Shown here piece by piece: positions 1,391-62,578 of a DNA stretch of 64,000 bases. Where the stretch lies: positions 32,001-96,000 of IMG/VR virus record IMGVR_UViG_3300028920_000027. One strand, 5' to 3'. The position numbers and the translations under genes are program-made. The notes beneath the pieces were generated by a model, which had not been told where the DNA came from, searched no databases, and worked only from the letters and a program-made list of their open reading frames with translations. How positions within the stretch are numbered: position 1 is the first letter of the stretch; each line of letters begins with the position of its first letter. This stretch comes from a virus.

Positions 1391-1418
1391 ACGCTAGAGC
1401 GAACGCATAAGCTCAGTT

Positions 1419-3251
1419 TCAGAAGCGGCCGCCACCTTCGTCGTCCGAAGTGGGAGCCATCTTCAATTTGAGGTACTCCGCGATCCTCTCGACCAAATCG
1501 GTCTTCTCGGCCAGTGTCCTGCCCACCTCACTGTAGACAGAACGCATCACCTCGTTGAAAGTCGCGTCGTTGACTGTGAACATGTCGGCTTCGAGCTTCC
1601 TGCGCGTGTCCTCTGGATCGATGTTCAACAGCTCCAGGAGCAAATCGATGCTGATCGAGCCCTTCTGGTACAAATTGAACAGCTGGTCATAAGTGTCCTG
1701 GCTGTCCCGCAGCGGAAGGCGCGTGAAGCTCAGACGAGGGAATAGCACGACCTCCTGGCCCCACTCATCCAGCTCGACGAAACCCATGCGGCGGGCTACC
1801 GGCTTGAACAACTGATCCTCAACGAACTCCTGGATGATCTCGCGAAGGTGAAGGTACCGTTGGTTGATCACCTCCAGCTTGAGTCGATCACCACTGTAGA
1901 GGGCCTCACCGCTCATCAATGATTCGGTGACCCCCAGGCCCGAGATCAATCGACGCTCGGTTTGCTCATACTCACCCTGAAGGTCGAGTAGTCGGTCCCG
2001 GGCACCCATCTCTTCCCAACGAATCTCGTAGTTGGCGACGATCGAGTAGTCAGGGTCGACCAGGGCTAGGTCCACCTGTTCGCGCAAGTCCTCGACGTCA
2101 GCATCAGACAAGCCCTCGGCCCACACGATGCGTTTGGGTGTCATAGCGCGCGAGGCAATCGACGTCTGCGCCTGCCGTAGTTTGTCACGGTAGATGAGGG
2201 TCCTCAGACAACGTTGAAGAATGCTGTGCCCAAGCGGGGAATCTGCACTCTTCCGACCTGAAACGATAGCAACGAACGAGCCCTCGTCGGGGTCGGTCCC
2301 CAGCGGAATGAAGCGACCACTTCGGATATGCTCACGAACTTCCTGAGGGATGTCCTCAACCATATCTTGAGCGTCCAAATCACCCATCTCGGCCTTCTGC
2401 ACGAGCGACCGATCCCGCTCACTCGGAATCAACTCGACCTTCACCCGATCACTGAAGTCGAAACTCGTGAGCTTGACGTGATCAATAGGCAAGACCACCA
2501 GACGAGACCACCCCTTGTAGTTCTTCTGGTAGTGCAGGAACTCCTGCTGTTCCTTGTCCGGCTGGGCCACGCGAACGCGGACGGGCCGCTCTACGGGGGT
2601 GCCGTCGTCAAGGATGACCGAAGCCGTCCGAACCTCGGTAGAATACCCCAGGTTCTCGGGGATCGGGACCTCACTATCCTCGGCGAACACCGCCACGGAG
2701 CCGTCCAACCAGTAGTGGTGGACGATCGTAATGAGCCGCTGGAACAGCTTGGTCTGCTTGCACATCCGCTCGAAGCGGTCGAGAATGTAGCGACCGTAGT
2801 CGTGGGGATCCTTGAACCCCTCCGGTGCCAGGCGCGGCTTGGGGGCGGCGAGGCGAGTTTTTGACAACGGCAACTCCGTGTGCAGGTCGATAGCCTGCCC
2901 CACCAGCTCGTCGTTGTTGTAGAAGTGCCGGAAGATCTCGCGCTGTTCACGCAAGCTCTGAGGCAGCTCCAGAAAGTCCTTCGAGAGCTGAACACTGAAG
3001 AAGTCCTGGGTTGCTGATCCAATGGTGTTGCTGCCGAAGGATCCCCCACCATAACCCATCCCGAGGCCAAGCCCCCCCTCGCCAAGGGTCGGGGAACACG
3101 CGGCCTCCCGCATCTGCTGGCGAGCAAGGCGCTCCTTGTATGTCAGATTCGAGTATGAGCCCTGCGAGACGTAGGGTCTCGTGGTCCGCACCATGACGTT
3201 ACTTGGCGGAGTCCACTGAGGGGAAACGTTGCTGTGCCGGCGCCTAGGCAT
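1419..3251 (-). CDS. Putative portal protein (610 aa)
   Basis: Size, position downstream of TerL in the head operon and a helical C-terminal half; no diagnostic catalytic motif. Confidence 0.6.
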   Translation of the reverse strand: MPRRRHSNVSPQWTPPSNVMVRTTRPYVSQGSYSNLTYKERLARQQMREAACSPTLGEGGLGLGMGYGGGSFGSNTIGSATQDFFSVQLSKDFLELPQSLREQREIFRHFYNNDELVGQAIDLHTELPLSKTRLAAPKPRLAPEGFKDPHDYGRYILDRFERMCKQTKLFQRLITIVHHYWLDGSVAVFAEDSEVPIPENLGYSTEVRTASVILDDGTPVERPVRVRVAQPDKEQQEFLHYQKNYKGWSRLVVLPIDHVKLTSFDFSDRVKVELIPSERDRSLVQKAEMGDLDAQDMVEDIPQEVREHIRSGRFIPLGTDPDEGSFVAIVSGRKSADSPLGHSILQRCLRTLIYRDKLRQAQTSIASRAMTPKRIVWAEGLSDADVEDLREQVDLALVDPDYSIVANYEIRWEEMGARDRLLDLQGEYEQTERRLISGLGVTESLMSGEALYSGDRLKLEVINQRYLHLREIIQEFVEDQLFKPVARRMGFVELDEWGQEVVLFPRLSFTRLPLRDSQDTYDQLFNLYQKGSISIDLLLELLNIDPEDTRRKLEADMFTVNDATFNEVMRSVYSEVGRTLAEKTDLVERIAEYLKLKMAPTSDDEGGGRF

Positions 3252-3711
3252 TCACCACCTCCCCGTACACTTCGTCAAAGTCATCACCCTCCGACCCTTG
3301 AAGGCTGAGTGTTGTCTGGGCCTTCCGCTCCATCTCACGCTGCTGAAGCTGTTGTCGAAGCTGCTCGTCCTGTTGCTCACGTTCGAGACGAGCTGCTTTG
3401 GAACTAATAAGCGCGCGGTCCGCAGCGGTCATGCGGCGGAAGCCGTTACCCAGAGCGCCCGCGAGACGTAGGTGTTGATTGGCAAATGCAACGAGAGCCT
3501 GCCCGTCCTCATCCCCGCGCAAGTTCCGCCGCACGTAGGCGCGAAGGGCATCACTCTTCTCGACCAGTTTGGCCAGGCCAGATTCCAACTCACCTCGAAG
3601 CTGCCTGATCTCTTCGATCATGGTGTTGGCAGCGGACGCACGTCGCCTGCGCAATTCGTCTTCGTGGCGCCGAACCGCCTCAATGTGTTGCAGCTCGTCC
3701 TGACCTGGCAT
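3244..3711 (-). CDS. Hypothetical coiled-coil protein (155 aa)
   Basis: Overlaps the portal start, co-oriented, heptad-like composition. Confidence 0.7.
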   Translation of the reverse strand: MPGQDELQHIEAVRRHEDELRRRRASAANTMIEEIRQLRGELESGLAKLVEKSDALRAYVRRNLRGDEDGQALVAFANQHLRLAGALGNGFRRMTAADRALISSKAARLEREQQDEQLRQQLQQREMERKAQTTLSLQGSEGDDFDEVYGEVVNA

Positions 3712-3714
3712 GGA

Positions 3715-4230
3715 TCACATCGCTGTCTGTATCCCGAGAAACAAGGAGTTTGTCGATTTCGGGACCTGGGCCACATAACCGGCCACCTGCGCAGGGGCCT
3801 CAGAATCGCCGCTGAGCGTCAGTTCGTCTTCAGGGGTCCACAGGCCCCGAAGACTCAAGAAAAGCTCCTGGTTGGGCGTGTAGACGAGCGGGACGAGAGG
3901 CCCAGCGAGACGTGAGGCATAGGTGTACTGCTCGTAGCTCGTGGTTCCCATAAGCGCGGCCCCAAACAACATCGTCGCGAACTGGTAATGGAGTTGATTC
4001 CGGGCCATCGCCGCGAAGTCGTCTCCTTCCTCATCGGAGCCCCACACCAGAAAACCAGCGTATCGACCCCGCGAGTAGCTGACGATGAACTCGTCGCTGC
4101 TCGATGCTACCCACTGGACTCCCTGACCACCGGGCCAACCCCCTGTCACCATCGCCTGGTCCACGACTACGGGGAACGAGTCGTCCTTGTACCAAACGAC
4201 GCAATCTCGGCTACGGAAGATCTCGGGCAT
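3715..4230 (-). CDS. Hypothetical beta-rich virion protein, paralog A (171 aa)
   Basis: MPEIFRSRDCVVW... aligns over its full length with the 4230-4748 product. Confidence 0.75.
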   Translation of the reverse strand: MPEIFRSRDCVVWYKDDSFPVVVDQAMVTGGWPGGQGVQWVASSSDEFIVSYSRGRYAGFLVWGSDEEGDDFAAMARNQLHYQFATMLFGAALMGTTSYEQYTYASRLAGPLVPLVYTPNQELFLSLRGLWTPEDELTLSGDSEAPAQVAGYVAQVPKSTNSLFLGIQTAM

Positions 4231-13835: not shown

Positions 13836-13959
13836 CCACCGGAGACGGGGCATAAAAGGAAACCCTAGTCTCATCGGGAACCTACGCCCAGTTCGACCCC
13901 AAACTCCTTGGCAACGGTCGCCCCTTCAAACCACGCCGACCGCAAAACCCCAAATTAAG

Positions 13960-20396: not shown

Positions 20397-21104
20397 TCAC
20401 ACCACTAGGTTGGGGTCCAATCCTTCCATGAATACACCAAATCGCTCATCTCCCCAAGCTTCCCAAAGATCTCCCCAGTCCTTGGACAGCTTACTCTCTC
20501 CCTCAGGCGCAGCCATGGGTACGGCAGGGGGTAGGGCCACTTCGATACGCTCGAACTCGTCTTGGTGATCCCGACGGAAGGCGTAGGCTACCTTGCGACC
20601 CGTCTCGTCGTTGTCGTAGCCGATCCACACCTGATCGACCATTCGGTGCAAAATCCTGAGTAAATCAGGGGAAATCCCTGCCTTAAGCGTAGCCACCACC
20701 TCAGGGTAGGTCCGTTGGACCGGGCACAGGTCGAACACCCCCTCGACCAACCAGATCCGGTTGCTCTGCCAGATGTGTGGCATGGCCTGATGTAGCCCGA
20801 AGAGGACCGCCTCGTCCCCTTCAAGTAAGTAGTCCATGTAGCCCTTGCGGACGATGGGGCGGAACTGAATGCCCTTGACTTGCCCTACCGAGTTCGTCAA
20901 CGGGAAAACCCAGACCCGGTTCAGGCGGTGCTTCTCAGCCCACCTGGCAAACCCAGGCGGCAAGCCCTCAGGCATCTCGTCCAGGTAGCCAACGTGGTAA
21001 AAGTCAATCTGCTCATCGGTCATGCCCCGACGCCACAAGCGGAAACGAAGGTCCTCGTCGAGCTGTTGCTCGGCGTGCTGCACCAGGCCGTCAATCCAGG
21101 TCAT
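20397..21104 (-). CDS. dnaG: DnaG-type primase core (TOPRIM), no N-terminal zinc-binding domain
   Basis: WVFPLTNSVGQVKGIQFR, LFGLHQA, LVEGVFD and GYDND (DxD). Confidence 0.8.
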   Translation of the reverse strand: MTWIDGLVQHAEQQLDEDLRFRLWRRGMTDEQIDFYHVGYLDEMPEGLPPGFARWAEKHRLNRVWVFPLTNSVGQVKGIQFRPIVRKGYMDYLLEGDEAVLFGLHQAMPHIWQSNRIWLVEGVFDLCPVQRTYPEVVATLKAGISPDLLRILHRMVDQVWIGYDNDETGRKVAYAFRRDHQDEFERIEVALPPAVPMAAPEGESKLSKDWGDLWEAWGDERFGVFMEGLDPNLVV

Positions 21105-48370: not shown

Positions 48371-48432
48371 GATGCTATTCTCCTATCTCTAACAGCTTGA
48401 CAGGGCAAATTCTTCTTGTGGTCCCGGGGGTT

Positions 48433-49867: not shown

Positions 49868-49876
49868 GACAATGAC

Positions 49877-51396: not shown

Positions 51397-51471
51397 CCCC
51401 CTTGGTTCAGAAGACCCTGCCGCTATGCGAATCGCTAAGCCCTCATAATCCTTTTCTGTAACGGATTTGGC

Positions 51472-52882: not shown

Positions 52883-52908
52883 GCGTAGGCTGGCCCACAA
52901 GTAGAACT

Positions 52909-53322
52909 TCAGGCCCCCATGACGTAGCGAAAGATCTCGGTACCGCTCATCACTTCTTCCGACTTGACTTCTAGTTCAGGCTCAATGACCTGGGGCTCAC
53001 TTGAGAAGATGAGGACCGGCTTAGGGAGCAAGACCTTGCCACTGCGAAGATCAAGGATGAGCTGGCGACGACCTTGGAAAGTAGCGAGCTGTCCCCGGAA
53101 GGCTCGCAAGGGAGCCTGGGAGCCCCTTGTAGCTGCCCGCACCAGCGCCCGAGGACACAACCACCTCCGCGTGGGACCCCTTGTATCAGCCTCTGTAAAG
53201 CCCAGTATCGCCCCATCCACACTATCCCGCGGGATGATCATCGCGCCCGGCTCCACCTTGGCATCTTGTACCGCCTTGAGCCAGGCATGTGGATCCTCGA
53301 AAGTGAGCACATTTCCAGGCAT
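52909..53322 (-). CDS. Hypothetical protein (137 aa)
   Basis: GGTGTAAAGT 9 nt upstream of ATG. Confidence 0.7.
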   Translation of the reverse strand: MPGNVLTFEDPHAWLKAVQDAKVEPGAMIIPRDSVDGAILGFTEADTRGPTRRWLCPRALVRAATRGSQAPLRAFRGQLATFQGRRQLILDLRSGKVLLPKPVLIFSSEPQVIEPELEVKSEEVMSGTEIFRYVMGA

Positions 53323-53356
53323 TCCAAGCTCACTTTACACCACGATCCAGGGCTCG

Positions 53357-53716
53357 TCAGGCCAACCGCTCCCAGAGCGTCGGGATCGAGGCCCGTTTCC
53401 GGTTCGCAGCTTCCTTGATCCGTTTCCGGTTCGCAGCTTCCTCGATCAGCCCCTCGATGAACTCGTTACGGGCCGCCTGACCCCGGAAGGTGTTCCGAAC
53501 GGTCACGTCACGGTGGTGGGCAAAAACCTCGATCTGGACCTTGATCGTGACCCGAGCCACATCACCACTGTTGTGGAAAATATAGGTGATCTCGCGACGA
53601 GAGATGTTGTCACTGGGGGTCATCTTTTCGTAGCCCAGCGAAATGGCAGCAATCATGGCCTCGGAGAACTCGTCGACCGACGTGGCCGTGAACTCCCTGT
53701 GAAGGGTTAGAGGCAT
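53357..53716 (-). CDS. Hypothetical protein with EAANRKR duplication and PTLWERLA tail
   Basis: Operon-coupled; 24-bp internal duplication. Confidence 0.65.
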   Translation of the reverse strand: MPLTLHREFTATSVDEFSEAMIAAISLGYEKMTPSDNISRREITYIFHNSGDVARVTIKVQIEVFAHHRDVTVRNTFRGQAARNEFIEGLIEEAANRKRIKEAANRKRASIPTLWERLA

Positions 53717-54078
53717 CGGAGGCGCTCCCACACGTTGGGTTGTTTTTCAGCCATCTCCCGACGGCGACGTTGAATGTCGTTGGCCTGAACCTGCAAGCTC
53801 TCCAGGAGACCTACACTCGAATGAATCCGCGCCGGGCTCCTAAGCAGAACTTCCATTGGAAGCAAAACGTGGAAGAAGTGGTTCGATCGCCTTGTGTCCC
53901 AAAGTGTGTACCGAATCGCCCGCAGACGTTGATCGTCAGAAGGTACCACCTGGTACCCCTCCAGAGCAAGAGCGAGAATCATGACGTCTCGAAAGTCAGC
54001 CATGCTGCCCGCCTTAAAGGTTTCATCACAGCAGGCCCGGAGCTTATACTCGTGCTTGAAGTCCTCTCGGGTCAGCAT
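53707..54078 (-). CDS. Hypothetical protein with PNVWERL tail
   Basis: GGTGTAGAGT 20 nt upstream of ATG 54078. Confidence 0.65.
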   Translation of the reverse strand: MLTREDFKHEYKLRACCDETFKAGSMADFRDVMILALALEGYQVVPSDDQRLRAIRYTLWDTRRSNHFFHVLLPMEVLLRSPARIHSSVGLLESLQVQANDIQRRRREMAEKQPNVWERLRCL

Positions 54079-54209
54079 GTCTGTTGGAGTCCCCCCGTAC
54101 TCTACACCAATCAACCAGTACAGTCGTAGAGAGCAGCCGGTGGTGGCCGCCGCATCTTGTGCATCGGCACCCTTGAACCTTGAACCCGGGCATCAGGGGA
54201 GAGCAGCCG

Positions 54210-54692
54210 CTACTCGATTTGGGAGGCCAGCCGCCGCAAGTGGGCGGCTAGATCCTGGCGCGAAGGTCGCTCGGGTCCTTGGCACGAAGCCAAAATATGG
54301 CCCAGCTCCTCCCGAAGCTCGTGGGGGTTCGTGATGCGAGCCGCCTTCGACCTCATGTACCGGTCCAGTTGTCGTTTCAGGCTCTTCTCAGCGCTCATCC
54401 GATCTCGGATGTTGGCCATCATCTCGGCGGAGGGCGGCCCCTCTTCACGACGTTGGTGGTCCGCGATGTTGGCGTGGAAGTGGAGCCAGTTCTTGGCGAG
54501 CATCAGCACTCCGTAGAGTCCAGGATCCCCCTCACGTTGCTTCTGATTCGCGATCTTCCCCATGGCCTCCTTGACGGCCATGATTGAGGTGAGGTCGGTC
54601 CCGATGGTGCGGGACATCTCTTCCAGAGCGATGTTGGCCCCCCGGCTGAGGGCCGTGCCCAGGAACTTTTCGGCTACCTGTACGGCGTTCAT
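54210..54692 (-). CDS. Helical protein with N-terminal QVAEKF motif (160 aa)
   Basis: CTTATG 13 nt upstream of ATG. Confidence 0.75.
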   Translation of the reverse strand: MNAVQVAEKFLGTALSRGANIALEEMSRTIGTDLTSIMAVKEAMGKIANQKQREGDPGLYGVLMLAKNWLHFHANIADHQRREEGPPSAEMMANIRDRMSAEKSLKRQLDRYMRSKAARITNPHELREELGHILASCQGPERPSRQDLAAHLRRLASQIE

Positions 54693-55043
54693 AGTCGAGG
54701 GTGCTCATAAGCAGATTCTGGTGAGCTGCGGTCTGATCGTGTACACTAAAGCCCTGTGCCCGTGAAGCCCCCAGCAGCCCCCGTGAAGACACCCAAGCCG
54801 GTGACGCCGGCAAGGAGGTCTTCGCGATGCATTACAAGCGCAGGCGCCGCCGTAGGGGCGGCATCAAGGGCTGCTGCCTCATATGCAGCTTGGCGACCAC
54901 GGACGGTCGCCGTAACGGCCGCAAGCTGACTCTGCAAGAGGAGCGTTCGCTCCAAGACATGGTGGAGCAGCTCGAAGGCGTCGAGGTCGTGTGTCAGCCT
55001 CGAACCTCATAGAGCGACTCATGTGAGCACTCTACGTCGGTTC

Positions 55044-55131
55044 TGGCGGAAGGTGGAGGAGTCGAACCCCTGCGCCTCTCGACACACCCCGGTGTTCGAG
55101 ACCGGTTGCCCACCACTGAGCGGCACCTTCC
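55044..55131 (-). tRNA. tRNA-Ser(CGA)
   Basis: Anticodon arm CCGGT-CTCGAAC-ACCGG, long variable arm, CCA. Confidence 0.9.
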
Positions 55132-55168
55132 AAGGGGAAAGACAGGACAGATTCTCTGGAGTGGAAAT

Positions 55169-55239
55169 TGGAGCCTCCGCGCGGAATCGAACCGCGACTA
55201 GCTGAGTACGAAACAGCCGTCTGACCATTCAGCAGAGGC
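55169..55239 (-). tRNA. tRNA-Thr(CGT)
   Basis: GCTGT-TTCGTAC-TCAGC, GCC acceptor start, CCA. Confidence 0.75.
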
Positions 55240-55241
55240 AA

Positions 55242-55317
55242 GGGTCCCCACCGGAGGAGTCGAACCTCGTCAACGGCCTTCGGAGGGCCGTGCTCGGAAT
55301 CCGCCGAGGCGGTGGGG
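55242..55317 (-). tRNA. tRNA-Arg(CCG), atypical D-arm
   Basis: CGGCC-CTCCGAA-GGCCG; 5-bp D-stem. Confidence 0.8.
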
Positions 55318-55377
55318 TTATAAACTGTCCTTCCAAAGAGGAGCTGGATACCCCGGGTAGAGGCAGCTGGAGCGGTG

Positions 55378-55452
55378 TGGTACCCCCGTGAGGATTCGAA
55401 CCCCTTGCACCGGACTAGAAAACCGGCTCCCCTTCCATCGGGTAACGGAGGC
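55378..55452 (-). tRNA. tRNA-Arg(TCT)
   Basis: CCGGT-TTTCTAG-TCCGG, CCA. Confidence 0.8.
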
Positions 55453-55455
55453 AAA

Positions 55456-55539
55456 CGGAGGAAGGTAGAGGACTCGAACCCCTGCGCTTTCACGCACCCC
55501 GGCTTTCAAAGCCAGTTCGCCGCCTTGGCGGTACCTTCC
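55456..55539 (-). tRNA. tRNA-Ser(TGA)
   Basis: CTGGC-TTTGAAA-GCCGG, long variable arm. Confidence 0.88.
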
Positions 55540-55543
55540 AGGT

Positions 55544-55630
55544 TGGCGGAAGACGGAGGAATCGAACCCCTCACCCTTGCGGGTGCAGCCGCTTTCCAGG
55601 CGGACCAGGCGCCTTGCCTGTTCATCTTCC
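55544..55630 (-). tRNA. tRNA-Ser(GGA)
   Basis: CCGC-CTGGAAA-GCGG, long variable arm, CCA. Confidence 0.9.
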
Positions 55631-55633
55631 AGA

Positions 55634-55710
55634 TGGTCTGGGTGAGAGGACTTGAACCTCCAACAACCGGCACCCAAAGCCGGTCCTCTACCAGGTTGAG
55701 GTACACCCAG
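55634..55710 (-). tRNA. tRNA-Pro(TGG)
   Basis: CCGGC-TTTGGGT-GCCGG, CCA. Confidence 0.92.
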
Positions 55711-55713
55711 ATG

Positions 55714-55790
55714 TGGCTCCCCAGGCAGGACTCGAACCTGCAACCAGTCGGTTAACAGCCGACCGCTCTGCCAAATTGAGCTACCGGGGA
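55714..55790 (-). tRNA. tRNA-Asn(GTT)
   Basis: GTCGG-CTGTTAA-CCGAC, CCA. Confidence 0.93.
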
Positions 55791-55796
55791 ATGAAT

Positions 55797-55941
55797 TGGC
55801 CTCCCGCCGGGACTTGAACCCGGTAACGGAGCCCGTTCGAGCTGACTCGGGGCCGCACCGTGGGCCCACGGTACAGCCTAACCCTTACCCTCTCGAATGG
55901 CGTCCCCGTCAGAGCCGGCTCTTGTGAGCTGCCATGGCAGG
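55797..55941 (-). ncRNA. About 145-nt tRNA-like structured RNA (T-arm + CCA, no canonical anticodon arm)
   Basis: 3' end CCGGG-TTCAAGT-CCCGG...GGCCA; internal long hairpins. Confidence 0.55.
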
Positions 55942-55945
55942 GTAG

Positions 55946-56019
55946 TAGGGGCCGGGGGAATCGAACCCACCCTTCGTCTGCTTGTAAAACAGCTGCCGTC
56001 ACCAGACAGCACGACCCCC
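55946..56019 (-). tRNA. tRNA-Val(TAC)
   Basis: CTGT-TTTACAA-GCAG; T1:T72 mismatch. Confidence 0.75.
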
Positions 56020-56024
56020 AGAGG

Positions 56025-56126
56025 CTAGTAGCCCCCGAAGTGCAGCCCGATCAACACGACCGTCACGATGAACGGGATGAGTGAGAAACCGGCAATGAAG
56101 CCTTGCAGCCTGAGGTGGTAGTCCAT
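56025..56126 (-). CDS. 33-aa single-TM micro-protein
   Basis: MDYHLRLQGFIAGFSLIPFIVTVVLIGLHFGGY with GAGG RBS. Confidence 0.5.
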   Translation of the reverse strand: MDYHLRLQGFIAGFSLIPFIVTVVLIGLHFGGY

Positions 56127-56173
56127 GCCTCAAGAGTAAAGGATTCGAGCGTCTGTGACAAGGGTGTGACAGG

Positions 56174-56644
56174 CTATTTACGGCTGGGTGTCAGTGACCG
56201 AACCGTCGATCCGCAAGCGCCGAGAAGTGTAGGGGAAACGTCGCCGATCTCGACAGTAGTGCGGTCGTTGTAGACCCGCTCGAAGGTGTCCTTGTCGGCC
56301 TCGGTCAAGAGTTCCAAGAGGTCCACGTTGGCGGAGCCCAACTCGCCCTCTTGTACAGCAAGGTCCGCATAAACCTTGACGTTGCCGTTGCCTACCTCGT
56401 ACCTGATGTCGGCTGTCCACCCCTTGGCCTCGATCTCGACTCGGGCAGGCCCGAGTCGCCCACTTCTCACGGGGCGGGCCTTGATGTTGAAGCGGCCCCA
56501 CCCGCCGCTGGCGCGTGACCAGTACTGCGCCGTCGCCTCAGCAACCTCGTCCAGCCACAGAGTCTGGGCCTGCGCCAGGTTCGGGAGCGACCCCGCCGTC
56601 TTCCGGATCTGGTACTGCTGGACAACGCGCTGCTCAGTGGTCAT
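56174..56644 (-). CDS. Hypothetical protein with N-terminal RVVQQY...RKTAG motif
   Basis: Start refined to ATG 56644, 13 nt after CTTGTG. Confidence 0.7.
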   Translation of the reverse strand: MTTEQRVVQQYQIRKTAGSLPNLAQAQTLWLDEVAEATAQYWSRASGGWGRFNIKARPVRSGRLGPARVEIEAKGWTADIRYEVGNGNVKVYADLAVQEGELGSANVDLLELLTEADKDTFERVYNDRTTVEIGDVSPTLLGACGSTVRSLTPSRK

Positions 56645-56660
56645 GTCATAGTCAGCGCAC

Positions 56661-56691
<31 letters not shown>

Positions 56692-56693
56692 GT

Positions 56694-56765
56694 CGGTGCT
56701 GGCGAGTGGACTCGAACCACAGCCGCAGGACATATGAAATCCCCGTACCGCCTTGGTACACCAGC
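56694..56765 (-). tRNA. tRNA-Met or Ile2 (CAT), elongator type
   Basis: GGGAT-TTCATAT-GTCCT; paired G1-C72. Confidence 0.75.
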
Positions 56766-56962
56766 AAAATGGTGACCTCACTTGGTGTGAGGTCCAGTGT
56801 GAATTACTGGGATCGTATCAACCACCCCATGGGCGCACTTGGCGACTACGGTACCGTCAATACCGAGAGTATGACCTCGCAGATCAATACCGACAGCAGA
56901 TTGAGTACTGGCAATCTGCGGGCACCCACTGGTACACTAGTTCGTTCTATTTGCCCGAAAAA

Positions 56963-57038
56963 TGGTGACCCTGGGGGGAGTTGAACCCACCTCTTCCCGG
57001 GTGAAAACCGGGGCGCCTAACCGTTAGCAGACAGGGCC
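56963..57038 (-). tRNA. tRNA-Glu(TTC)
   Basis: CCCGG-TTTTCAC-CCGGG, CCA. Confidence 0.88.
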
Positions 57039-57040
57039 GT

Positions 57041-57113
57041 TGGAGCCAGCGGGGGGAGTCGAACCCGCCGTCGTCACCCATACCAAGGGTGCGCCTCGCC
57101 GTGAGTCGCTGGC
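57041..57113 (-). tRNA. tRNA-Thr(GGT)
   Basis: CACCC-TTGGTAT-GGGTG, CCA. Confidence 0.85.
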
Positions 57114-57171
57114 AAACGGTGTACAAGGTTTGAAGATCCGAAGCTGCACCAAGGCTGGAACCCTGACATCC

Positions 57172-57247
57172 TAGTGACCCCACCGGGACTTGAACCCGGA
57201 TTTCCTGAGTGAGAGTCAGGTTGCCTCGCCAGTTAGCAGATGGGGCC
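57172..57247 (-). tRNA. tRNA-Glu(CTC)
   Basis: CCTGA-CTCTCAC-TCAGG. Confidence 0.9.
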
Positions 57248-57351
57248 AGTTTGCGACGCCCGAGCAAGCTCGGGGCCGCCCACACCCCCTGGTGATCAAG
57301 CAGGGGGCTTGTGTGACGCAGACCATTTGGTTTACTCCCGTCTGCGAGGGG

Positions 57352-57426
57352 TGGAGCGAGTGACGGGAATCGAACCCGCCAGGACTGCGTTGGCAACGCA
57401 GTTCTCCACCTTGGAGAATCACTCGC
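57352..57426 (-). tRNA. tRNA-Gly(GCC)
   Basis: CTGCG-TTGCCAA-CGCAG, CCA. Confidence 0.9.
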
Positions 57427-57482
57427 AGAAGTTCTCGGCAGCCGTTACTGCTACCACGGTCGCCTGTTCGAATTCTTTTAAA

Positions 57483-57689
57483 TCATGCTGTCGGGTCGGA
57501 GGGTAGACGAGCCGCTTCCGATTCCAAGCCCACCGCCAACAAGCTCAGCGCGTCGCGCAGGGCCCTATCCAGACGGTCGTCGTAGGTGATTTCCCAGGTG
57601 CCCTCTTGAGTCAAAATCTCGATGTGACTCATCGTGGACCGGTTCGACACGCGAAAGGTGTTGCCCCGAAAGGTGCAGTAGCCATACAT
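57483..57689 (-). CDS. Small hypothetical protein (68 aa), probably leaderless
   Basis: GGTGTATAGT 5 nt upstream of ATG 57689. Confidence 0.5.
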   Translation of the reverse strand: MYGYCTFRGNTFRVSNRSTMSHIEILTQEGTWEITYDDRLDRALRDALSLLAVGLESEAARLPSDPTA

Positions 57690-57706
57690 GAGAAACTATA
57701 CACCGT

Positions 57707-57776
57707 TGGGGTGTCGCGGGGAATCGAACCCCTCAACTCGGGTCACAGCCGAGTTCGCTCCCAGAGCTACGACACC
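57707..57776 (-). tRNA. tRNA-His(GTG)
   Basis: CTCGG-CTGTGAC-CCGAG, G-1:C73, short D-loop, CCA. Confidence 0.88.
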
Positions 57777-57822
57777 ATTCGCACCAGCCGGTAGACGTGT
57801 TCTCGACGAATCGAGAATCGCT

Positions 57823-57910
57823 CAGCGGAAGGCGAGGGAATCGAACCCCTTAGCCCTTACGGACTACACTGGGTAGCGACCAGCTCCAGCACCATGCTGG
57901 ATCACCTTCC
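57823..57910 (-). tRNA. tRNA-Ser(GCT), copy 1
   Basis: GCTGG-TCGCTAC-CCAGT, long variable arm. Confidence 0.82.
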
Positions 57911-57946
57911 AAGAGTCATTTGCTGTCTAACGGTGTAAAAAACTCC

Positions 57947-58219
57947 ATGGCACTCAGTAACAAGAGGCGACAACACGCCCTGCTGTCAGGCGAAGCATGG
58001 GCCAAGGGAATGCTCAAGATCTTCATCGAGGACCCGAGTTACTTCCCGAAAGGTGCCGAGTCACTCTACGACTTTGTACCCAGAGCGGCTCGATCACACC
58101 TAGCCATGAATTGCACCCACAAACCCAGTCAAGAAGAAGAAGACCTGGCTCAAAAAGGTGCAGCCGATCTGATCCGGCTGGCTCTCGACTTCGCCGAAAA
58201 GGTGCCGGAGAATCCTTGA
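57947..58219 (+). CDS. Hypothetical protein antisense to the tRNA array (90 aa)
   Basis: GGTGTAAAAA 5 nt upstream of ATG 57947. Confidence 0.65.
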   Translation: MALSNKRRQHALLSGEAWAKGMLKIFIEDPSYFPKGAESLYDFVPRAARSHLAMNCTHKPSQEEEDLAQKGAADLIRLALDFAEKVPENP

Positions 58220-58292
58220 GCAGAGAGCAGGGGTCTCGATCCCCAGGGCTTCTCGACCCCGAATCGCTTTCCAAGCGGACCCGGCACGATGA

Positions 58293-58308
58293 TGTCTCAC
58301 GTGAAATA
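58293..58308. promoter_or_regulatory. parS-like palindrome 1
   Basis: TGTCTCACGTGAAATA, 14/16 match to TGTTTCACGTGAAACA. Confidence 0.5.
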
Positions 58309-58309
58309 T

Positions 58310-58385
58310 CGGCCCCCACCGGAGGAGTCGAACCTCGTCAGCCGGTTTAGGAAACCAGCGCCCGGAATCCGCCGAGGCGGTGGGG
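58310..58385 (-). tRNA. tRNA-Arg(CCT), atypical D-arm
   Basis: CTGGT-TTCCTAA-ACCGG; body nearly identical to Arg(CCG). Confidence 0.8.
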
Positions 58386-58388
58386 GAG

Positions 58389-58474
58389 TTGCGGAAGGCG
58401 GAGGAATCGAACCCCATGGCCGTAAGACCACTTCGGGTAGCAGCCGAGCCCAGCACCTTGCTGGTTCGCCTTCC
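58389..58474 (-). tRNA. tRNA-Ser(GCT), copy 2
   Basis: CTCGG-CTGCTAC-CCGAA, long variable arm. Confidence 0.85.
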
Positions 58475-58530
58475 AAGGGTTTCGGACGGGCCCGAAACCA
58501 AGAATCTGCTTGTGCCCTCGCTGAGGCACC

Positions 58531-58863
58531 ATGTACTCCTACGATCGACGTACCGCCTCCCGTCACGGCCCCGTGGGGGAGATTCTGATGAAGCGCTGGA
58601 ACATTCTCCACGACCTCGACCGCGAGCTGCAAGACGCGAGTCAGGAGTATGACGTGGCGGCCTCCTACAAGGGCAAGCCGGGGGAGAAGGGCGCCGAAAA
58701 GGTGATGGAAGCCATCAAGAAGGTCCGTGAGGCCATCTCCAACCTCGCCGACAGTGGCAAGGACTTCGACAAACTCCTCGAAGCCGAGACCAAGTTCGTC
58801 AAACAGCATGGCTCACCTGGCGACTACGCTCAGGCCCAGCGCGACGCGATCTACCCGCTGTAG
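58531..58863 (+). CDS. Helical protein with N-terminal YDRRTAS motif (110 aa)
   Basis: ATCTGCTTGTG 16 nt upstream; GAGG RBS. Confidence 0.75.
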   Translation: MYSYDRRTASRHGPVGEILMKRWNILHDLDRELQDASQEYDVAASYKGKPGEKGAEKVMEAIKKVREAISNLADSGKDFDKLLEAETKFVKQHGSPGDYAQAQRDAIYPL

Positions 58864-58934
58864 TGGAATCGGGGGGACTCGAACCCCCATCTCTGGCTTG
58901 CGACACCAGCGTCTTCCCGTTGGACGACGACCCC
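58861..58934 (-). tRNA. tRNA-Ala(CGC), copy 1
   Basis: CTGGT-GTCGCAA-GCCAG; G3:U70. Confidence 0.85.
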
Positions 58935-58935
58935 T

Positions 58936-59010
58936 TAGAGCCGGCGAGCGGAATCGAACCGCAACCCTGAGGTTTACAAAACCCCCGCTCCTCCTTGGAG
59001 CTGCACCGGC
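58936..59010 (-). tRNA. tRNA-Thr(TGT)
   Basis: GGGGT-TTTGTAA-ACCTC. Confidence 0.88.
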
Positions 59011-59174
59011 ATTCTCCCGGACCACCCAGAGCCTGCAATGGGGACCGGGGCGACGTCTCGTGCCAGACGCCCTCCTGTATGCAGGAAGGAGGGTCCGAAA
59101 GGTCACGTACATGGTCGCACGCCTTGAAGTAATCAGGTCCCAGGCAGCTACCCCCGGGTTGATAGCTCATGGCG

Positions 59175-59251
59175 TGGTACGGGGCGTGGGGATCGAACCC
59201 ACCAGGAACCTGCTTGTCGAGCAGGTGTGTTCACCAGCTCACTCGCCCCGC
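59175..59251 (-). tRNA. tRNA-Val(GAC)
   Basis: CCTGC-TCGACAA-GCAGG, CCA. Confidence 0.82.
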
Positions 59252-59260
59252 ATCTAGACA

Positions 59261-59276
59261 CATTTCACGTGAAACG
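59261..59276. promoter_or_regulatory. parS-like palindrome 2
   Basis: CATTTCACGTGAAACG, 13/16 match with a perfect core TTTCACGTGAAA. Confidence 0.5.
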
Positions 59277-59323
59277 TTCAGTTGCGTGGTTCAGACAACC
59301 TACCGAAGGCCAACCTGAACCCG

Positions 59324-59395
59324 TGGTGGAACTGCCGGGTAACGCTCCCGGTTACCCTGGTTGCGACCCAGGGTCCCTGCCTTCAGGACAGCCCC
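59324..59395 (-). tRNA. tRNA-Ala(CGC), copy 2, non-canonical T-loop
   Basis: CCTGG-GTCGCAA-CCAGG; G3:U70; T-loop AGCGTTA; CCA. Confidence 0.7.
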
Positions 59396-59424
59396 GAAGA
59401 ACGCCTTCCCAAGGATGAGGGTTG

Positions 59425-59502
59425 TAGTCAGGATGGCCGGAATCGAACCGGCGGTCTCCGCACCCCCAGTGCGGCGCTCTAGCCAAACTGAGCCACACCC
59501 TG
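59425..59502 (-). tRNA. tRNA-Pro(GGG)
   Basis: CCGCA-CTGGGGG-TGCGG. Confidence 0.92.
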
Positions 59503-60088
59503 AATCTTGTGCCAAGCCTCCAAAGTTGAAGGCTTGAATGAAACGTACCTGCCGTTGCTGCCGATGTCCTCCCAGGTGAAGACGTGTACCTCGTCCAGCA
59601 ACAGGTCGTAGCCGACTAGTAGGTCAAAGTCGGAAGGCTCGTAGTGGCGGCGACCTTGGCGCTTACTGGATGGGGGGCCCCTGCCTATGACGGGCAGCCC
59701 ACTTTACCTGGAGCCTGACTACGCGCGCATCTTCTAGCTCGATGAGCCAGTCGCTGCGGCTCCCCTCGAACACTGAGCGTAAGGGAGTGTACCCTAAGAC
59801 CACCAGCCGAAACAACACCGCCGCCTCCGCGATGCGACCCTTGTGTTCGGAAGTCAACCCGCCCGCCATCAGGTAGTACTTGGAAGGGCTGATTACCCGG
59901 GACGGTTTTGGCTTGTTAGTTGCCTGTCGAGACCTCAACTCGCTAGCCGTCAGAGGGTACTCCTTGAGCCAGAGGGACAGCGAGCCTTTTGCGGCTCCTG
60001 TAAGGTCGTGAATCTCGCGCAAGGAGCGTCGCTCCTCGACTCTCAACCGCACACATTCAGCCCTCAACCCGTCGTTACGCTTTGTCAT
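59479..60088 (-). pseudogene. Frameshifted HTH + PD-(D/E)XK endonuclease (group I intron-like family)
   Basis: KGRIAEAAVLFRL...SDWL...RLQVKW, then +1 frame GLPVI...HYEPSDFDLLVGYDL...WHKI; break near 59700. Confidence 0.75.
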
Positions 60089-60121
60089 AGGTTCATTGAA
60101 CCATATCTGGGTTCGTAGAGC

Positions 60122-60196
60122 TGGTCGGAGACCCGGGGATCGAACCCGGCGAGTCTTGGTCCCGAACCAAGCGGCACACCCTGCGCCTTGTCTCCG
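60122..60196 (-). tRNA. tRNA-Pro(CGG)
   Basis: CTTGG-TTCGGGA-CCAAG, CCA. Confidence 0.85.
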
Positions 60197-60197
60197 T

Positions 60198-60274
60198 TGG
60201 ACCCCACCGGAGGAGTCGAACCTCGACAACGGGTTTCGTAGACCCGTGCCCGGTAATCCGCCGGGTCAGTGGGG
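60198..60274 (-). tRNA. tRNA-Arg(ACG), atypical D-arm
   Basis: CGGGT-CTACGAA-ACCCG; 5-bp D-stem; CCA. Confidence 0.82.
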
Positions 60275-60291
60275 ATGGACTTCAGTTGGAG

Positions 60292-60375
60292 TTGTAGGCC
60301 GCGTGAGAATCGAACTCCAAGCCAAAACGCTCATAAGACGCCCGGATGCGACCAGCACCCTGAAGGACGCGGCCC
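60292..60375 (-). tRNA. tRNA-Ile(TAT) with extra 8-nt insertion before the D-arm
   Basis: GGCGT-CTTATGA-GCGTT; insert CCTTCAGG; weak T-stem. Confidence 0.6.
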
Positions 60376-60379
60376 AGAT

Positions 60380-60455
60380 CAGTACTCGGGAGAGGAGTCG
60401 AACCTCCACTGGTCGGCTTCTAAAACCGATGTCTCTGCCGTTGGACTACCCGAGC
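60380..60455 (-). tRNA. tRNA-Leu(TAG), short variable loop
   Basis: TCGGT-TTTAGAA-GCCGA; 5-nt variable loop. Confidence 0.85.
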
Positions 60456-60456
60456 G

Positions 60457-60532
60457 TGGTAGGGGCGGAGGGAGTCGAACCCTCACTGGCCGCGTTTTAA
60501 GGGCGGTGTCTCTGCCGTTGGACTACACCCCC
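60457..60532 (-). tRNA. tRNA-Leu(TAA), short variable loop
   Basis: CCGCC-CTTAAAA-CGCGG; 5-nt variable loop; CCA. Confidence 0.82.
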
Positions 60533-60533
60533 G

Positions 60534-60605
60534 CACCCCAAGAAGGAATCGAACCCTCATCCTCGGTTCCGAAGACCGATGCTCTATCCGTTGAGCTACT
60601 GGGGC
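60534..60605 (-). tRNA. tRNA-Arg(TCG)
   Basis: TCGGT-CTTCGGA-ACCGA; canonical D-arm. Confidence 0.9.
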
Positions 60606-60612
60606 AAGGTTT

Positions 60613-60700
60613 TGGTGCTCGCAGCAGGACTTGAACCTGCACGTCCACAAGGAACACTGGAGTTTGAAACCAGGATGTCTGCCAATTCCATCATGCGAGC
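60613..60700 (-). tRNA. tRNA-Leu(CAA)
   Basis: CTGGT-TTCAAAC-TCCAG, long variable arm, CCA. Confidence 0.9.
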
Positions 60701-60701
60701 A

Positions 60702-60791
60702 TGGTGCCGAGGACAGGAGTCGAACCTGCACGCCCCTTCAAAGAGCACCTGGACCTGAACCAGGCGTGGCTGCCATTTACACCACCTCGGC
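60702..60791 (-). tRNA. tRNA-Leu(CAG)
   Basis: CCTGG-TTCAGGT-CCAGG, long variable arm, CCA. Confidence 0.92.
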
Positions 60792-60853
60792 AAGTAGCGT
60801 CACACTGTCCCTGGACGACTGCTGGACCATTCCAACGACACCGCCGCGTGACG

Positions 60854-60939
60854 CAGTGCTAGGAGCGGGACTTGAACCCGCACGCCCACAAGGAGCACAG
60901 CTTCTCAAGCTGCCGTGTATGCCATTCCACCACCCTAGC
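60854..60939 (-). tRNA. tRNA-Leu(GAG)
   Basis: CAGC-TTGAGAA-GCTG, long variable arm. Confidence 0.9.
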
Positions 60940-60942
60940 AAA

Positions 60943-61006
60943 GCTCAGTTGCAGGGAATCGAACCACCCGGGCACCGACGTCGCTTGCCATTACGCCAAA
61001 CTGAGC
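60943..61006 (-). ncRNA. tRNA-like element lacking an anticodon arm (64 nt)
   Basis: 8-bp acceptor GCTCAGTT/AACTGAGC, D-like GCGTAATGGCAAGC, T-loop TTCGATT; no anticodon stem-loop. Confidence 0.55.
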
Positions 61007-61079
61007 GGTGGAATCGGAGGGAATCGAACCCTCATTACAGGTCTGCCAGACCCGTGTCTTCCCGTTAGACGACGACCCC
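61006..61079 (-). tRNA. tRNA-Ala(GGC)
   Basis: CGGGT-CTGGCAG-ACCTG; G3:U70. Confidence 0.9.
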
Positions 61080-61141
61080 AAGTTGAAGGCGGCGCTACCC
61101 TCGCTCTTACATAACCACCGTACAGATGGCGTAGCCTTCAC

Positions 61142-61216
61142 CAGCTCCGGGCCTAGGGATCGAACCTAGCTCAATGGGGTCAAAGCCCACCGTCCTCACC
61201 AGAAGACCAACCCGGA
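61142..61216 (-). tRNA. tRNA-Gln(TTG)
   Basis: GTGGG-CTTTGAC-CCCAT; U1-A72, G73. Confidence 0.88.
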
Positions 61217-61318
61217 ATAGTACCCCCTGTACGGGGGTGTAATCTTGAATTTTCTCAGTGCATCCTCGTGTGATCCTTGGGACTCGACACAACATCCTGA
61301 GCACTACACCTTGGGAGC

Positions 61319-61570
61319 ATGTACATTCACAGAAAGACCCCCCTCGAACGCTTCATCACCTACGACGCGGCCCGCACCGGCTGCACCTACGACGCGGCCA
61401 GGCAGCGCCTTGAGCAAGCTGGGTTTGACCTCAACCGAAGAAGCTGGGAGATGGTCTTGAAGTACTATCTCCCCCTTCTCCAAGAAGACCCCTCGCTGCT
61501 GGAGGAGTTCGTCTACCGCCCGCCGACCTTCGCGCGGCTTCGAGAACTACGAGTCAGGCTGGCAGCATGA
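61319..61570 (+). CDS. Hypothetical protein (83 aa) with TYDAAR duplication
   Basis: GGGAG RBS; GGTGTAATCT upstream at 61236. Confidence 0.65.
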   Translation: MYIHRKTPLERFITYDAARTGCTYDAARQRLEQAGFDLNRRSWEMVLKYYLPLLQEDPSLLEEFVYRPPTFARLRELRVRLAA

Positions 61571-61636
61571 ACCGCGGGAGTGCCTCCGGTTGACTAGACC
61601 GTTGGCTGTGCCGGGCAGCCACCCCCAGCACCTCCC

Positions 61637-61712
61637 TGGTGCGAGCAGCGGGAATCGAACCCGCGTCTGCGGCTTGGGAAGCCGCCGTCCTGGCCAACTG
61701 AACGACGCTCGC
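61637..61712 (-). tRNA. tRNA-Gly(CCC)
   Basis: GCGGC-TTCCCAA-GCCGC, CCA. Confidence 0.92.
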
Positions 61713-61713
61713 G

Positions 61714-62355
61714 TCATCCTCGGTCCACCACTTGACGGGCCCGGCGAATCGCCGCCGGGACCGTACGCGTGGGGTCGAACTCGTCATCGGCAAAGTCGGC
61801 CACATCCTGACTCACCGATTCGTTGATGAGATTCAAGCCGTACCGGTGACGTCGAACGCCCTTATGCCGCATCGACCCCAGATGCTCGCCCACCCAGCCG
61901 TAGAGGAAGCCCCAGGAGGGCTCCCTGAGCTTGACCCAGGCACCCAATCGGAGCCGCCGCTTCTCGGGCTCTGGGGGCTCGTACAGCTCGGGAGCGGGCA
62001 CCGACTCCTCGACGAGGACAGGGACGTGGGTGAAGCCCAAGTCCTTGCTTGCATTGTATCGGTGGATTCCATCCACAATGTCGAACTTGCCGCCCTTGTC
62101 CACCACATCGAGGGGGTCAAGAGGAGTCCCACGCTCGATGTGGCGCCGTACCTCTTCGTAACGCCCCGGGTTCCAGACCGGCTTGGGAATGATGAGGCGG
62201 ATGGGCACCAGCAGAAGTCGTGCCTTGGTGTAGACGCCCAGCTCTCGAGCCTCATCGCGCTGGGTCTCAGGATCGTTCTTCGCGTCCAGACTCCGGCGAT
62301 CCACCTTGTAGTGGCTCCTCGCGCGGGCGATGCGGCGGTCATAGTGATACGCCAT
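61714..62355 (-). CDS. ParB/sulfiredoxin-like N-terminal-domain protein with YDRRIA leader
   Basis: PLDPLDV...FDIVDGIHRYNA...GFTHVPVLV (ParBc motif). Confidence 0.8.
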   Translation of the reverse strand: MAYHYDRRIARARSHYKVDRRSLDAKNDPETQRDEARELGVYTKARLLLVPIRLIIPKPVWNPGRYEEVRRHIERGTPLDPLDVVDKGGKFDIVDGIHRYNASKDLGFTHVPVLVEESVPAPELYEPPEPEKRRLRLGAWVKLREPSWGFLYGWVGEHLGSMRHKGVRRHRYGLNLINESVSQDVADFADDEFDPTRTVPAAIRRARQVVDRG

Positions 62356-62368
62356 GTTTCCAACAGGC

Positions 62369-62550
62369 TCAGTCTTGGTCAGCGTAGATGTTGGCTTGTT
62401 CCCAGATGTACGCCGCGATCTGCTGTGGCACATTTGCCTTCAGGCTCAACTTCGCTGGCCGAGAATCGTTGAGTAGGCCCTCCGAGCCTCTTCCACCATA
62501 TTGGAAAGAGTCTTGGCACCCGCTGCCATTCGATAGTCATAGTGCGTCAT
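62369..62550 (-). pseudogene. Frameshifted small protein with MTHYDYRMAAG leader
   Basis: Frame 1 stops after ILGQRS; another frame continues AKLSLKANVPQQIAAYIWEQANIYADQD; CTTGTG 13 nt upstream. Confidence 0.5.
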
Positions 62551-62578
62551 GCTACCGATCGATCACAAGAAGAATCTC

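Follow-up and report, generated by a model that had tools for sequence, protein, structure and literature searches.

A conserved, oriented motif about 13 nt upstream of start codons as a candidate promoter-type signal in an uncultured huge phage

We analyzed a 64,000-nt stretch of DNA from an uncultured huge phage (hereafter, the window; bases 32001-96000 of the 182,335-bp IMG/VR record IMGVR_UViG_3300028920_000027), focusing on a short motif, WTCYNYTTRTG, which a first-pass annotation had proposed to be a late promoter set at a near-fixed distance from start codons. The motif is real and conserved. We hold with moderate confidence, on the strength of sequence comparison, that its extended form, which we term class B, is a promoter-type DNA signal, that is, a compact, single-element, phage-specific promoter or an obligatory activator site. 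Most likely, class B would represent a second, phage-specific promoter class producing leaderless or short-leader mRNAs, distinct from the clade-wide GGTGTAnnnT signal (class A, described below). All coordinates, including those on the contig beyond the ends of the window, are in window numbering, and gene boundaries are those of our codon-usage caller and are approximate.

The motif is strongly overrepresented, with 8 matches to WTCYNYTTRTG in the window compared to 1.10 +/- 1.18 in 100 dinucleotide shuffles, none of which reached 8, and 11 matches in the whole 182-kb contig against approximately 2.9 estimated from composition. Alignment of the sites bore out the annotated core and showed that the actual element is longer, with the consensus ARA-WTCTNCTTRTG-nnC and a conserved block of 14-17 nt. 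A position weight matrix (PWM) built on this alignment separates a tight top class from all other positions. This class consists of 48420(+), 52896(-), 54706(-), 56658(-), 58514(+) and 62564(-) within the window and 81911(-), 83535(-) and 134071(-) beyond it; in leave-one-out tests, its eight seed sites (six in the window) ranked 4-13 among ~364,000 positions. All nine top matches lie between called genes, and the eight that have a nearby downstream gene are all oriented toward that gene, whereas matches scoring ~9-17 fall mostly within coding sequences, on either strand. The scan thus revealed the predicted strand and distance bias, rather than equal frequencies on the antisense strand and inside genes. 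Beyond ~17 nt, the flanks of the sites are 25-29% identical, the same as random pairs, so that the motif is not a repeat or a mobile cassette. The strong sites of the window, followed by the weaker strings considered here, are the following:

48407..48423, plus strand: class B site AAA-TTCTTCTTGTG-gtC, PWM score 25.6, leave-one-out rank 4, located 12 nt before ATG 48433 of a 37-aa open reading frame (ORF), 48433-48546
52893..52909, minus strand: class B site AAG-TTCTACTTGTG-ggC, 13 nt before ATG 52882 of the gene for a conserved 226-aa protein, 52202-52882
54703..54719, minus strand: class B site AGA-ATCTGCTTATG-agC, leave-one-out rank 9, 13 nt before ATG 54692 of a 160-aa gene, 54210-54692
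56655..56671, minus strand: class B site TTC-TTCTTCTTGTG-cgC, 13 nt before ATG 56644 of a 156-aa gene, 56174-56644
58501..58517, plus strand: class B site AGA-ATCTGCTTGTG-ccC, 16 nt before ATG 58531 of a 110-aa tagged protein, 58531-58863, with GAGG in the spacer
62561..62577, minus strand: class B site AGA-TTCTTCTTGTG-atC, 13 nt before ATG 62550 of a 34-aa tagged ORF, 62446-62550
13851..13861, minus strand: weak variant TTCCTTTTATG, leave-one-out rank 70, 15 nt before ATG 13835
21034..21044, minus strand: additional match to the motif, TTCCGCTTGTG, absent from the first-pass list; weak, without the ARA flank, rank 46
1406..1416, minus strand: CTGAGCTTATG, from the first-pass list; outside the consensus, PWM rank 218 of ~364,000, at background
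51448..51458, plus strand: ATCCTTTTCTG, from the first-pass list; 13 nt before ATG 51472, outside the WTCYNYTTRTG pattern, rank 532, at background

All nine strings originally listed for the motif are present in the DNA where they had been placed, and seven of them fit WTCYNYTTRTG, the exceptions being those at 1406 and 51448; WTCCTTTT variants comparable to the latter occur at the same 13-nt spacing in related phages. Several of the strong sites have a promoter-like placement. The site at 48407..48423 lies within a 64-nt divergent gap at a minus-to-plus strand switch, the site at 81911 is likewise located at a strand switch, and the site at 58501..58517 precedes a lone plus-strand gene (58531-58863) embedded in a minus-strand tRNA array, with a 7-bp hairpin (58479-58498) just upstream of the motif. 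The site at 52893..52909 starts 3 nt past the stop codon of the upstream gene. Among the weaker strings, 21034..21044 either falls inside gene 20397-21104 or precedes an alternative ATG (21023) by 10 nt, and TTCCTTTTATG recurs at -25403, 49 nt before a head-region gene led by a Shine-Dalgarno (SD) sequence, where its leave-one-out rank is 26, that is, marginal.

Three further observations concern the sites themselves. First, six of the nine strong sites hold GANTC (GAATC or GATTC) in their 5' half, for example, those at 54706, 58504, 62564, 81911 and 83535; GANTC is the target of CcrM-type adenine methyltransferases, and the contig encodes a DNA methyltransferase (69732-71108, minus strand). 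Second, a (CTT)n microsatellite of ~8 units (56669-56692, minus strand) is fused to the TTCTTCTTGTG motif between tRNA-Met and gene 56174-56644. Third, the motif's own ATG at 54706-54716 (minus strand) opens a 58-aa alternative frame, MSTLDYERRT..., which overlaps the 160-aa ORF and resembles the YDRR-type N-terminal tag of neighboring small proteins; this resemblance may be due to chance.

The proposed near-fixed distance of 12-16 nt to the start codon held up in the window, where 13 nt is the most frequent value: the spacers are 12, 13, 13, 13, 13 and 16 nt at the six strong sites and 15 nt at the weak site, 13851. For the strong sites with a start codon nearby across the contig, the spacers are 12, 13, 13, 13, 13, 13 (with a GTG start), 16 and 22 nt, whereas the site at 134071 has no ORF start nearby and lies ~72 nt from a start. 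ATG is the start codon at 8 of the 9 class B starts. These starts largely lack SD sequences. By a strict definition, an SD is present at 53% of tightly coupled genes, compared to 8% of class A starts and 11% (1/9) of class B starts. A well-placed SD was found at none of the 7 sites with a spacer of 15 nt or less and at 3 of the 4 with longer spacers (Fisher ~0.02, an estimate), namely, GAGG (16 nt), GGAGGG (22 nt) and GAGGAG (49 nt). The presence of an SD only at longer spacers is what would be expected if the motif, and not the ATG, fixes the RNA start.

We also considered whether the motif's own RTG or TTG could serve as a leaderless start codon and rejected this candidate: only 6 of the 9 instances share the frame of the ORF, and at 62564 the frame stops within 1-4 codons. 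Because the frame is not consistent, the downstream ATG is taken as the start codon. In the case of gene 52202-52882, the protein on record is 232 aa long, matching an ORF that begins at a TTG within the motif; from homologues and motif geometry, we favor either ATG 52882 or an internal Met 12 codons further in.

Conservation of the motif was explored in 80 related metagenome loci. The 226-aa protein encoded behind the site at 52896 has many homologues on huge-phage contigs, including relatives that are 54-62% identical, and in several related loci its gene clusters with orthologues of both motif-bearing genes located outside the window, which encode a papain-like protease and a dual-specificity phosphatase. 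In four of the related loci (L020, L017, L009 and L019), the protease orthologues are preceded by TTCTTCTTTTC, TTCTACTTTTC, TTCCTTTTTTC and ATCCTCTTGTC, respectively, each exactly 13 nt before the ATG. To quantify spacing, we scored the distance from a loose core, WTYYNYTT with three unconstrained positions behind it, to the first ATG of each ORF of at least 60 aa. On the contig studied here, the distribution peaks at 13 nt (5 cases vs a background near 0.8); across 333 kb of related contigs, there were 9 cases at 13 nt and 6 at 14 nt vs ~1.5, and a reversed-pattern control was flat, without a 13-nt peak.

At the 3' end of the motif, the final triplet varies by lineage: it is GTG or ATG in the phage studied here, TTC or TTA in L009, L017 and L020, GGT or GGC in L028, and ATA or AAT in L008. 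These comparisons suggest that the 3' triplet is lineage-specific, with the WTCYNYTT core and the 13-nt spacing held constant. At the L008 phosphatase orthologue, a class A GGTGTA at leaderless distance stands in place of class B.

The 485-kb uncultured phage LR745208.1, whose portal is 51% identical to that of our contig, contains 8 matches vs 5 in the control, without enrichment at 13 nt; in Tunturiibacter phage Tunturi_5 (portal 38% identical), there are 10 matches vs 5, with a marginal 13-nt signal that does not amount to clear enrichment, and class A is also absent. No cultured model was found, and a near-identity search of window positions 48000-60000 against phage records returned nothing useful. 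IMG/VR searches identified no relative of a 301-aa protein and one distant relative of the 226-aa protein; an IMG/VR scan for TTCTTCTTGTG-nnC-N10-ATG gave single matches at about chance level, mostly antisense to Lys-rich coding sequence. The L001 region orthologous to the head of the structural operon has a different gene content.

The genes behind the strong sites, which lie in and near the tRNA region, encode small proteins with N-terminal VAxR[YF] or YDRR tags, the 226-aa protein, the papain-like protease and the phosphatase, and include no recognized virion gene. The suggestion that the motif heads the structural operon depends on a single weak site, 13851 (rank 70); ATG 13835 starts the first gene (12930-13835) of this long minus-strand operon, after a 367-nt gap. 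Given that the genes behind strong sites are not virion genes and that the structural-operon site is weak, the designation of the motif as "late" is unsupported. The remark that the motif was not seen before replication genes proved apt: it is absent from the tightly coupled replication operons, and from the structural ones as well.

Under the promoter-type reading, the motif would fix the transcription start within the interval that runs from its final G to the ATG 13 nt further on. Initiation could take place at the ATG, at that final G, as at the phiKZ TATG promoters, or anywhere in the interval. Most class B mRNAs would then have no leader or one of at most ~13-16 nt and would be translated without an SD, whereas an SD would be found in the spacer when the start codon is farther away (16, 22 or 49 nt). 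The reader would most likely be host RNA polymerase (RNAP) redirected by a phage-encoded DNA-binding factor; such a factor is suggested by the variation of the 3' triplet among lineages against the constant core and spacing. The original proposal of a single-element promoter with very short leaders is borne out insofar as class B is a single, asymmetric, oriented element, appropriately positioned and without a -35/-10 partner; its promoter function is what we infer from these features.

Several observations weigh against this reading. The sample is small, approximately 9-11 sites, and each lineage contributes just a few sites to the 3'-triplet covariation. No TAnnnT or other melting element intervenes between the motif and the ATG, nor does a TAnnnT occur within 20 nt of the core sites in either direction; furthermore, the 13-nt spacers are GC-rich (65%). 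Both features sit awkwardly with a sigma-70-type open complex that would start at the ATG. A translation signal, too, would be expected to keep a fixed distance to the start codon. In L020, L017, L009 and L019, a -10-like GGTAGAAT (TAGAAT) is conserved upstream, at 4 nt from the motif. With this arrangement the motif would be part of the 5' untranslated region (UTR), which favors a role at the RNA level. Finally, no phage RNA polymerase was detected in the 182 kb, which represent ~38% of the genome.

As a more specific form of the promoter reading, we tentatively propose, while regarding it as rather unlikely in this exact form, that class B is an upstream-only element, spanning roughly -27 to -11 and without a -10 hexamer, that would make host RNAP start at the ATG or a few bases before it with the help of a co-evolving phage factor, possibly the 250-aa protein discussed below. 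The 5' half of the motif, nARAWT, was also examined by eye as a degenerate -10 with a start at R; it fits 8 of the 11 sites here and not the relatives' sites, and may be a sub-variant of the promoter reading. A non-coding RNA downstream of 134071 was rejected, with no Rfam match and a fold z-score of only -1.45.

The most serious competitor of the promoter-type reading, which we consider unlikely and nonetheless give real weight, is an RNA-level element in a short 5' UTR, 13 nt before the AUG, that would recruit the ribosome (for example, via S1 on the pyrimidine tract) or a phage translational regulator and so replace the SD. The start codon is indeed the reference point of the tight spacing, 13 nt being the commonest value both here and in the relatives, the motif is pyrimidine-rich, the genes behind it lack an SD, and, with GGTAGAAT 4 nt upstream in the four loci named above, the transcript could start within the motif. 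There is also a precedent, the 13-bp Start-Associated Sequence (SAS) of Cluster K mycobacteriophages, for which a translational role has been proposed (PMC3203893). However, top-scoring members of the class are also found 22, 49 and ~72 nt from a start (81911, -25403 and 134071, respectively), with a normal SD in between at the first two, and a distance-dependent translation signal would be useless at such distances. Moreover, the motif is missing from the ~80 internal genes that are tightly coupled, although a translation signal would be of greatest use there, its 3' triplet varies by lineage, which argues against pairing with conserved host rRNA, and the sites of this phage are not preceded by a -10-like element.

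An improbable alternative is an operator for a phage repressor or activator, stoperator-like, lying over weak, unrecognized promoters of co-regulated genes, many of them N-terminally tagged, and setting the timing rather than the start site of transcription. The site is asymmetric, ~17 bp long and has one orientation relative to transcription; the conserved 250-aa protein, with two region-4-like helix-turn-helix (HTH) folds, could read ~1.5 turns of DNA; and the motif, in its full or a weak form, is present at approximately 5 of the ~12 tagged genes. Nevertheless, nothing else promoter-like is conserved at class B sites, and a pure operator would have no need to maintain its 13-nt register to the ATG in diverged phages. 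This alternative overlaps with the promoter-type reading in the event that the protein bound to the motif acts as an obligatory activator.

Still harder to sustain is a promoter of an unrecognized phage-encoded RNAP, with the start at or beside the terminal TRTG, by analogy with the late promoters of phiKZ and AR9. The motif ends in TRTG, and ARAW-N6-T-R matches the register of AR9 AACA-N6-T-A/G (PMC5312081); several large proteins have no family match, and with the contig covering ~38% of the genome, a polymerase could be encoded in the absent part. In the 182 kb, however, there are no matches to Rpb2 or T7-type RNAPs (Pfam PF00562 and PF00940), and none of 20 large proteins compared with PHROGs matched an RNAP family. 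The sigma-like genes and the sigma-type classes A and C point instead to the use of host polymerase, and a start at the final G would imply uniform 13-nt leaders devoid of an SD, a length for which there is no known reason. A chance or compositional artefact, or descent from duplicated 5' gene ends, is largely refuted and almost certainly wrong: notwithstanding the overlap of the motif with (CTT)n-like composition (56658 is the end of the microsatellite) and the two background-level sites of the initial list, the shuffle comparison, the unrelated flanks and the recurrence of orientation, intergenic placement and the 13-nt peak in independent metagenome contigs all speak against it.

As a candidate reader, the first-pass annotation had singled out a sigma-region-4-like gene:

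14528-15280, minus strand: gene for a 250-aa protein that comprises a sigma region 4 (residues 68-119), a Cys4 motif and another HTH resembling region 4

This protein matches Pfam Sigma70_r4 (E-value 1.3e-13) and region 4 of SigF in the PDB; a second, weaker Pfam region-4 match was also found, and in the alignment these two are separated by a conserved Cys4 motif. An AlphaFold model based on 40 homologues (mean pLDDT, the predicted local distance difference test score, 78) predicts two helical HTH bundles, of which the first superposes on region 4 of SigR and SigF with 0.9-1.1 A over 52-57 residues. No region 2 was detected in this protein by Pfam or in the model, the sole region-2 match in the contig being in another gene (74588-75883), and the 250-aa protein thus could not be a stand-alone sigma factor. 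It is 55-75% identical across hundreds of huge-phage contigs, making it a core gene of the clade, and a 39%-identical homologue is present in LR745208.1, where the 13-nt signal is absent. Its distribution matches class B no better than it matches the clade-wide GGTGTA class; together with the lack of region 2, this leaves its proposed role as the reader of class B without support. Next to this gene, an HNH endonuclease gene (14203-14550, minus strand; PHROG E-value 8e-25) overlaps its 3' end by 23 nt and lies ~370 nt upstream of the structural operon. The other sigma-like gene encodes a 431-aa protein (74588-75883, minus strand) with a weak region-2 match and a C-terminal half resembling extracytoplasmic function (ECF) sigma factors; it is followed by the gene for an HTH protein, the pair spanning 73704-75883 (minus strand).

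The phage has at least two start-linked signal classes besides class B. GGTGTA is the strongest upstream hexamer, found before 25 genes vs 2.5 expected, and is far more enriched than class B; GTGTAnnnT at 5-6 nt before the ATG accounts for 18 of 76 sites in the whole contig. Examples of this class A in the window are the following:

57932..57949, plus strand: GGTGTA, 9 nt and ATG 57947, a leaderless-type start of a 90-aa ORF (57947-58219), with GGTGTAnnnT at 57932-57941
47764-47773, minus strand: GGTGTAnnnT before ATG 47757
57695-57704, minus strand: GGTGTAnnnT before ATG 57689
37723-37732, minus strand: GGTGTAnnnT before ATG 37716

Class A recurs in many related huge-phage contigs. Its arrangement fits the geometry of a -10 hexamer, with the transcript probably beginning at the A of the ATG, that is, a leaderless mRNA. 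Class C, TGAACGTT-N15-17-CGTAT(A/G)G, has at least 6 occurrences upstream of small genes, mostly outside the window; the following ones (loci L211-L214) all lie past the window end:

75916, minus strand: class C site
117418, plus strand: class C site
119783, plus strand: class C site
133407, plus strand: class C site
134174, plus strand: class C site
134761, plus strand: class C site

Class C looks like an ECF-sigma promoter (GAAC...CGT), and the 431-aa ECF-like protein is a natural candidate for its reader. Canonical sigma-70 -35/-10 pairs (16-18 bp apart) were not enriched at 47500-63500, with 2 found vs 3.4 expected and none at a class B site. Apart from these classes, CCCTAGATGTAGATC-like strings recur in head-module intergenic gaps, all outside the window (-27624, -5538 and 98034, minus strand), and could be a further regulatory signal for structural genes; the k-mers ACTAGG and CCTAGA are enriched upstream of genes.

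The contig as a whole has 59% GC and, by CheckV, is ~38% complete, with ~60% of the genome absent. The first 48 kb of the window are one long minus-strand gene run encoding a portal, an intein-bearing terminase, clamp loaders, exonucleases, a UvsX-like recombinase, an NAD ligase, a ribonucleotide reductase and GroEL. A plus-strand two-component cassette follows at 48-52 kb, and 33 minus-strand tRNA genes with small ORFs in between occupy 55-63 kb. Rfam adds one tRNA at 55172-55239 (minus strand). A tRNA-like element that was called by neither ARAGORN nor Rfam is located at 62579-62649 (minus strand) and stops 4 nt before the motif at 62564-62574. Its acceptor stem has 7 bp, its T-loop contains GGTTCGA, its anticodon may be GCA, and the CCA is encoded; other gaps of the tRNA array contain similar uncalled T-arm and acceptor ends.

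Almost no regulatory signals have been mapped in huge phages of uncultured hosts. If class B is a promoter, it would form, together with the GGTGTA and ECF-like classes, a three-class regulatory map readable directly from sequence, and would group genes of unknown function, including those for the tagged small proteins, the papain-like protease and the phosphatase, into a regulon. A promoter element without a -10 hexamer that fixes the start within ~13 nt would be mechanistically unusual, and if the upstream-only form is correct, class B would define a second, separately timed regulon of leaderless mRNAs in huge phages, beside the GGTGTA class. Should the motif act on the RNA level instead, it would direct translation initiation independently of an SD from a fixed 13-nt register, and such a signal is likewise undescribed. 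The motif map also helps correct start-codon calls, such as that of the public protein of gene 52202-52882, which begins at the TTG within the motif.

Class B can be compared with several known systems. No sigma-70 hexamer pair is present at its sites. Sigma-54 promoters carry GG at -24 and GC at -12 (TGGCAC-N5-TTGCW), and the class B consensus has neither dinucleotide in that register. The late promoters of T4, recognized with gp55, are compact phage-specific elements at which a phage factor redirects host RNA polymerase, and in phiEco32 a single-element promoter is read by the phage sigma gp36 with gp79, gp36 being reported to contact the -35 region as well. Similarly to both, class B would be a compact, phage-specific element that replaces the host -35/-10 pair. 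Unlike them, it would lie at approximately -27 to -11 if the ATG is +1, whereas their elements lie over the melting -10 region; no search aimed at homologues of gp36, gp79 or gp55 was made. By the features of the sigma-70 family, the product of gene 14528-15280 has region 4 and lacks region 2. The phiEco32 system is described in PMC12276001.

The late promoters of jumbo-phage non-virion RNAPs, TATG with G as +1 in phiKZ and AACA-N6-T-A/G in AR9 (PMC5312081), are short motifs ending at the transcription start, as class B might be, and are resembled by class B in its terminal TRTG and its ARAW-N6-T-R register. In AR9, however, leaders range from 26 to 491 nt rather than being short and fixed (PMC5312081), and in contrast to these systems, no multisubunit phage RNAP genes were found in our contig, that is, in ~38% of the genome. 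Like the SAS of Cluster K mycobacteriophages, class B is short and asymmetric, recurs before start codons in a single orientation, as its core sites show, prefers ATG, is restricted to non-structural genes and is conserved across related phages before unrelated genes (PMC3203893). The SAS, however, lies 3-7 bp from the start and contains the SD core AGGAG (PMC3203893), whereas class B is modally 13 nt away, pyrimidine-rich and without an SD core.

Further parallels are the -10-adjacent leaderless promoters described from Deinococcus-Thermus and Actinobacteria (PMC12340547, PMC3160421), and class A of this phage itself. All are single elements at a fixed distance from the ATG, without an SD, intergenic and on both strands. 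Class A has the TAnnnT ending 5-7 nt before the start codon that characterizes leaderless promoters, a true -10 hexamer 5-6 nt from the ATG, whereas class B lacks the hexamer, ends 13 nt from the ATG and is separated from it by a GC-rich spacer, sharing with leaderless promoters the ATG start and the lack of an SD. The two classes coexist in the same genome and in the same relatives.

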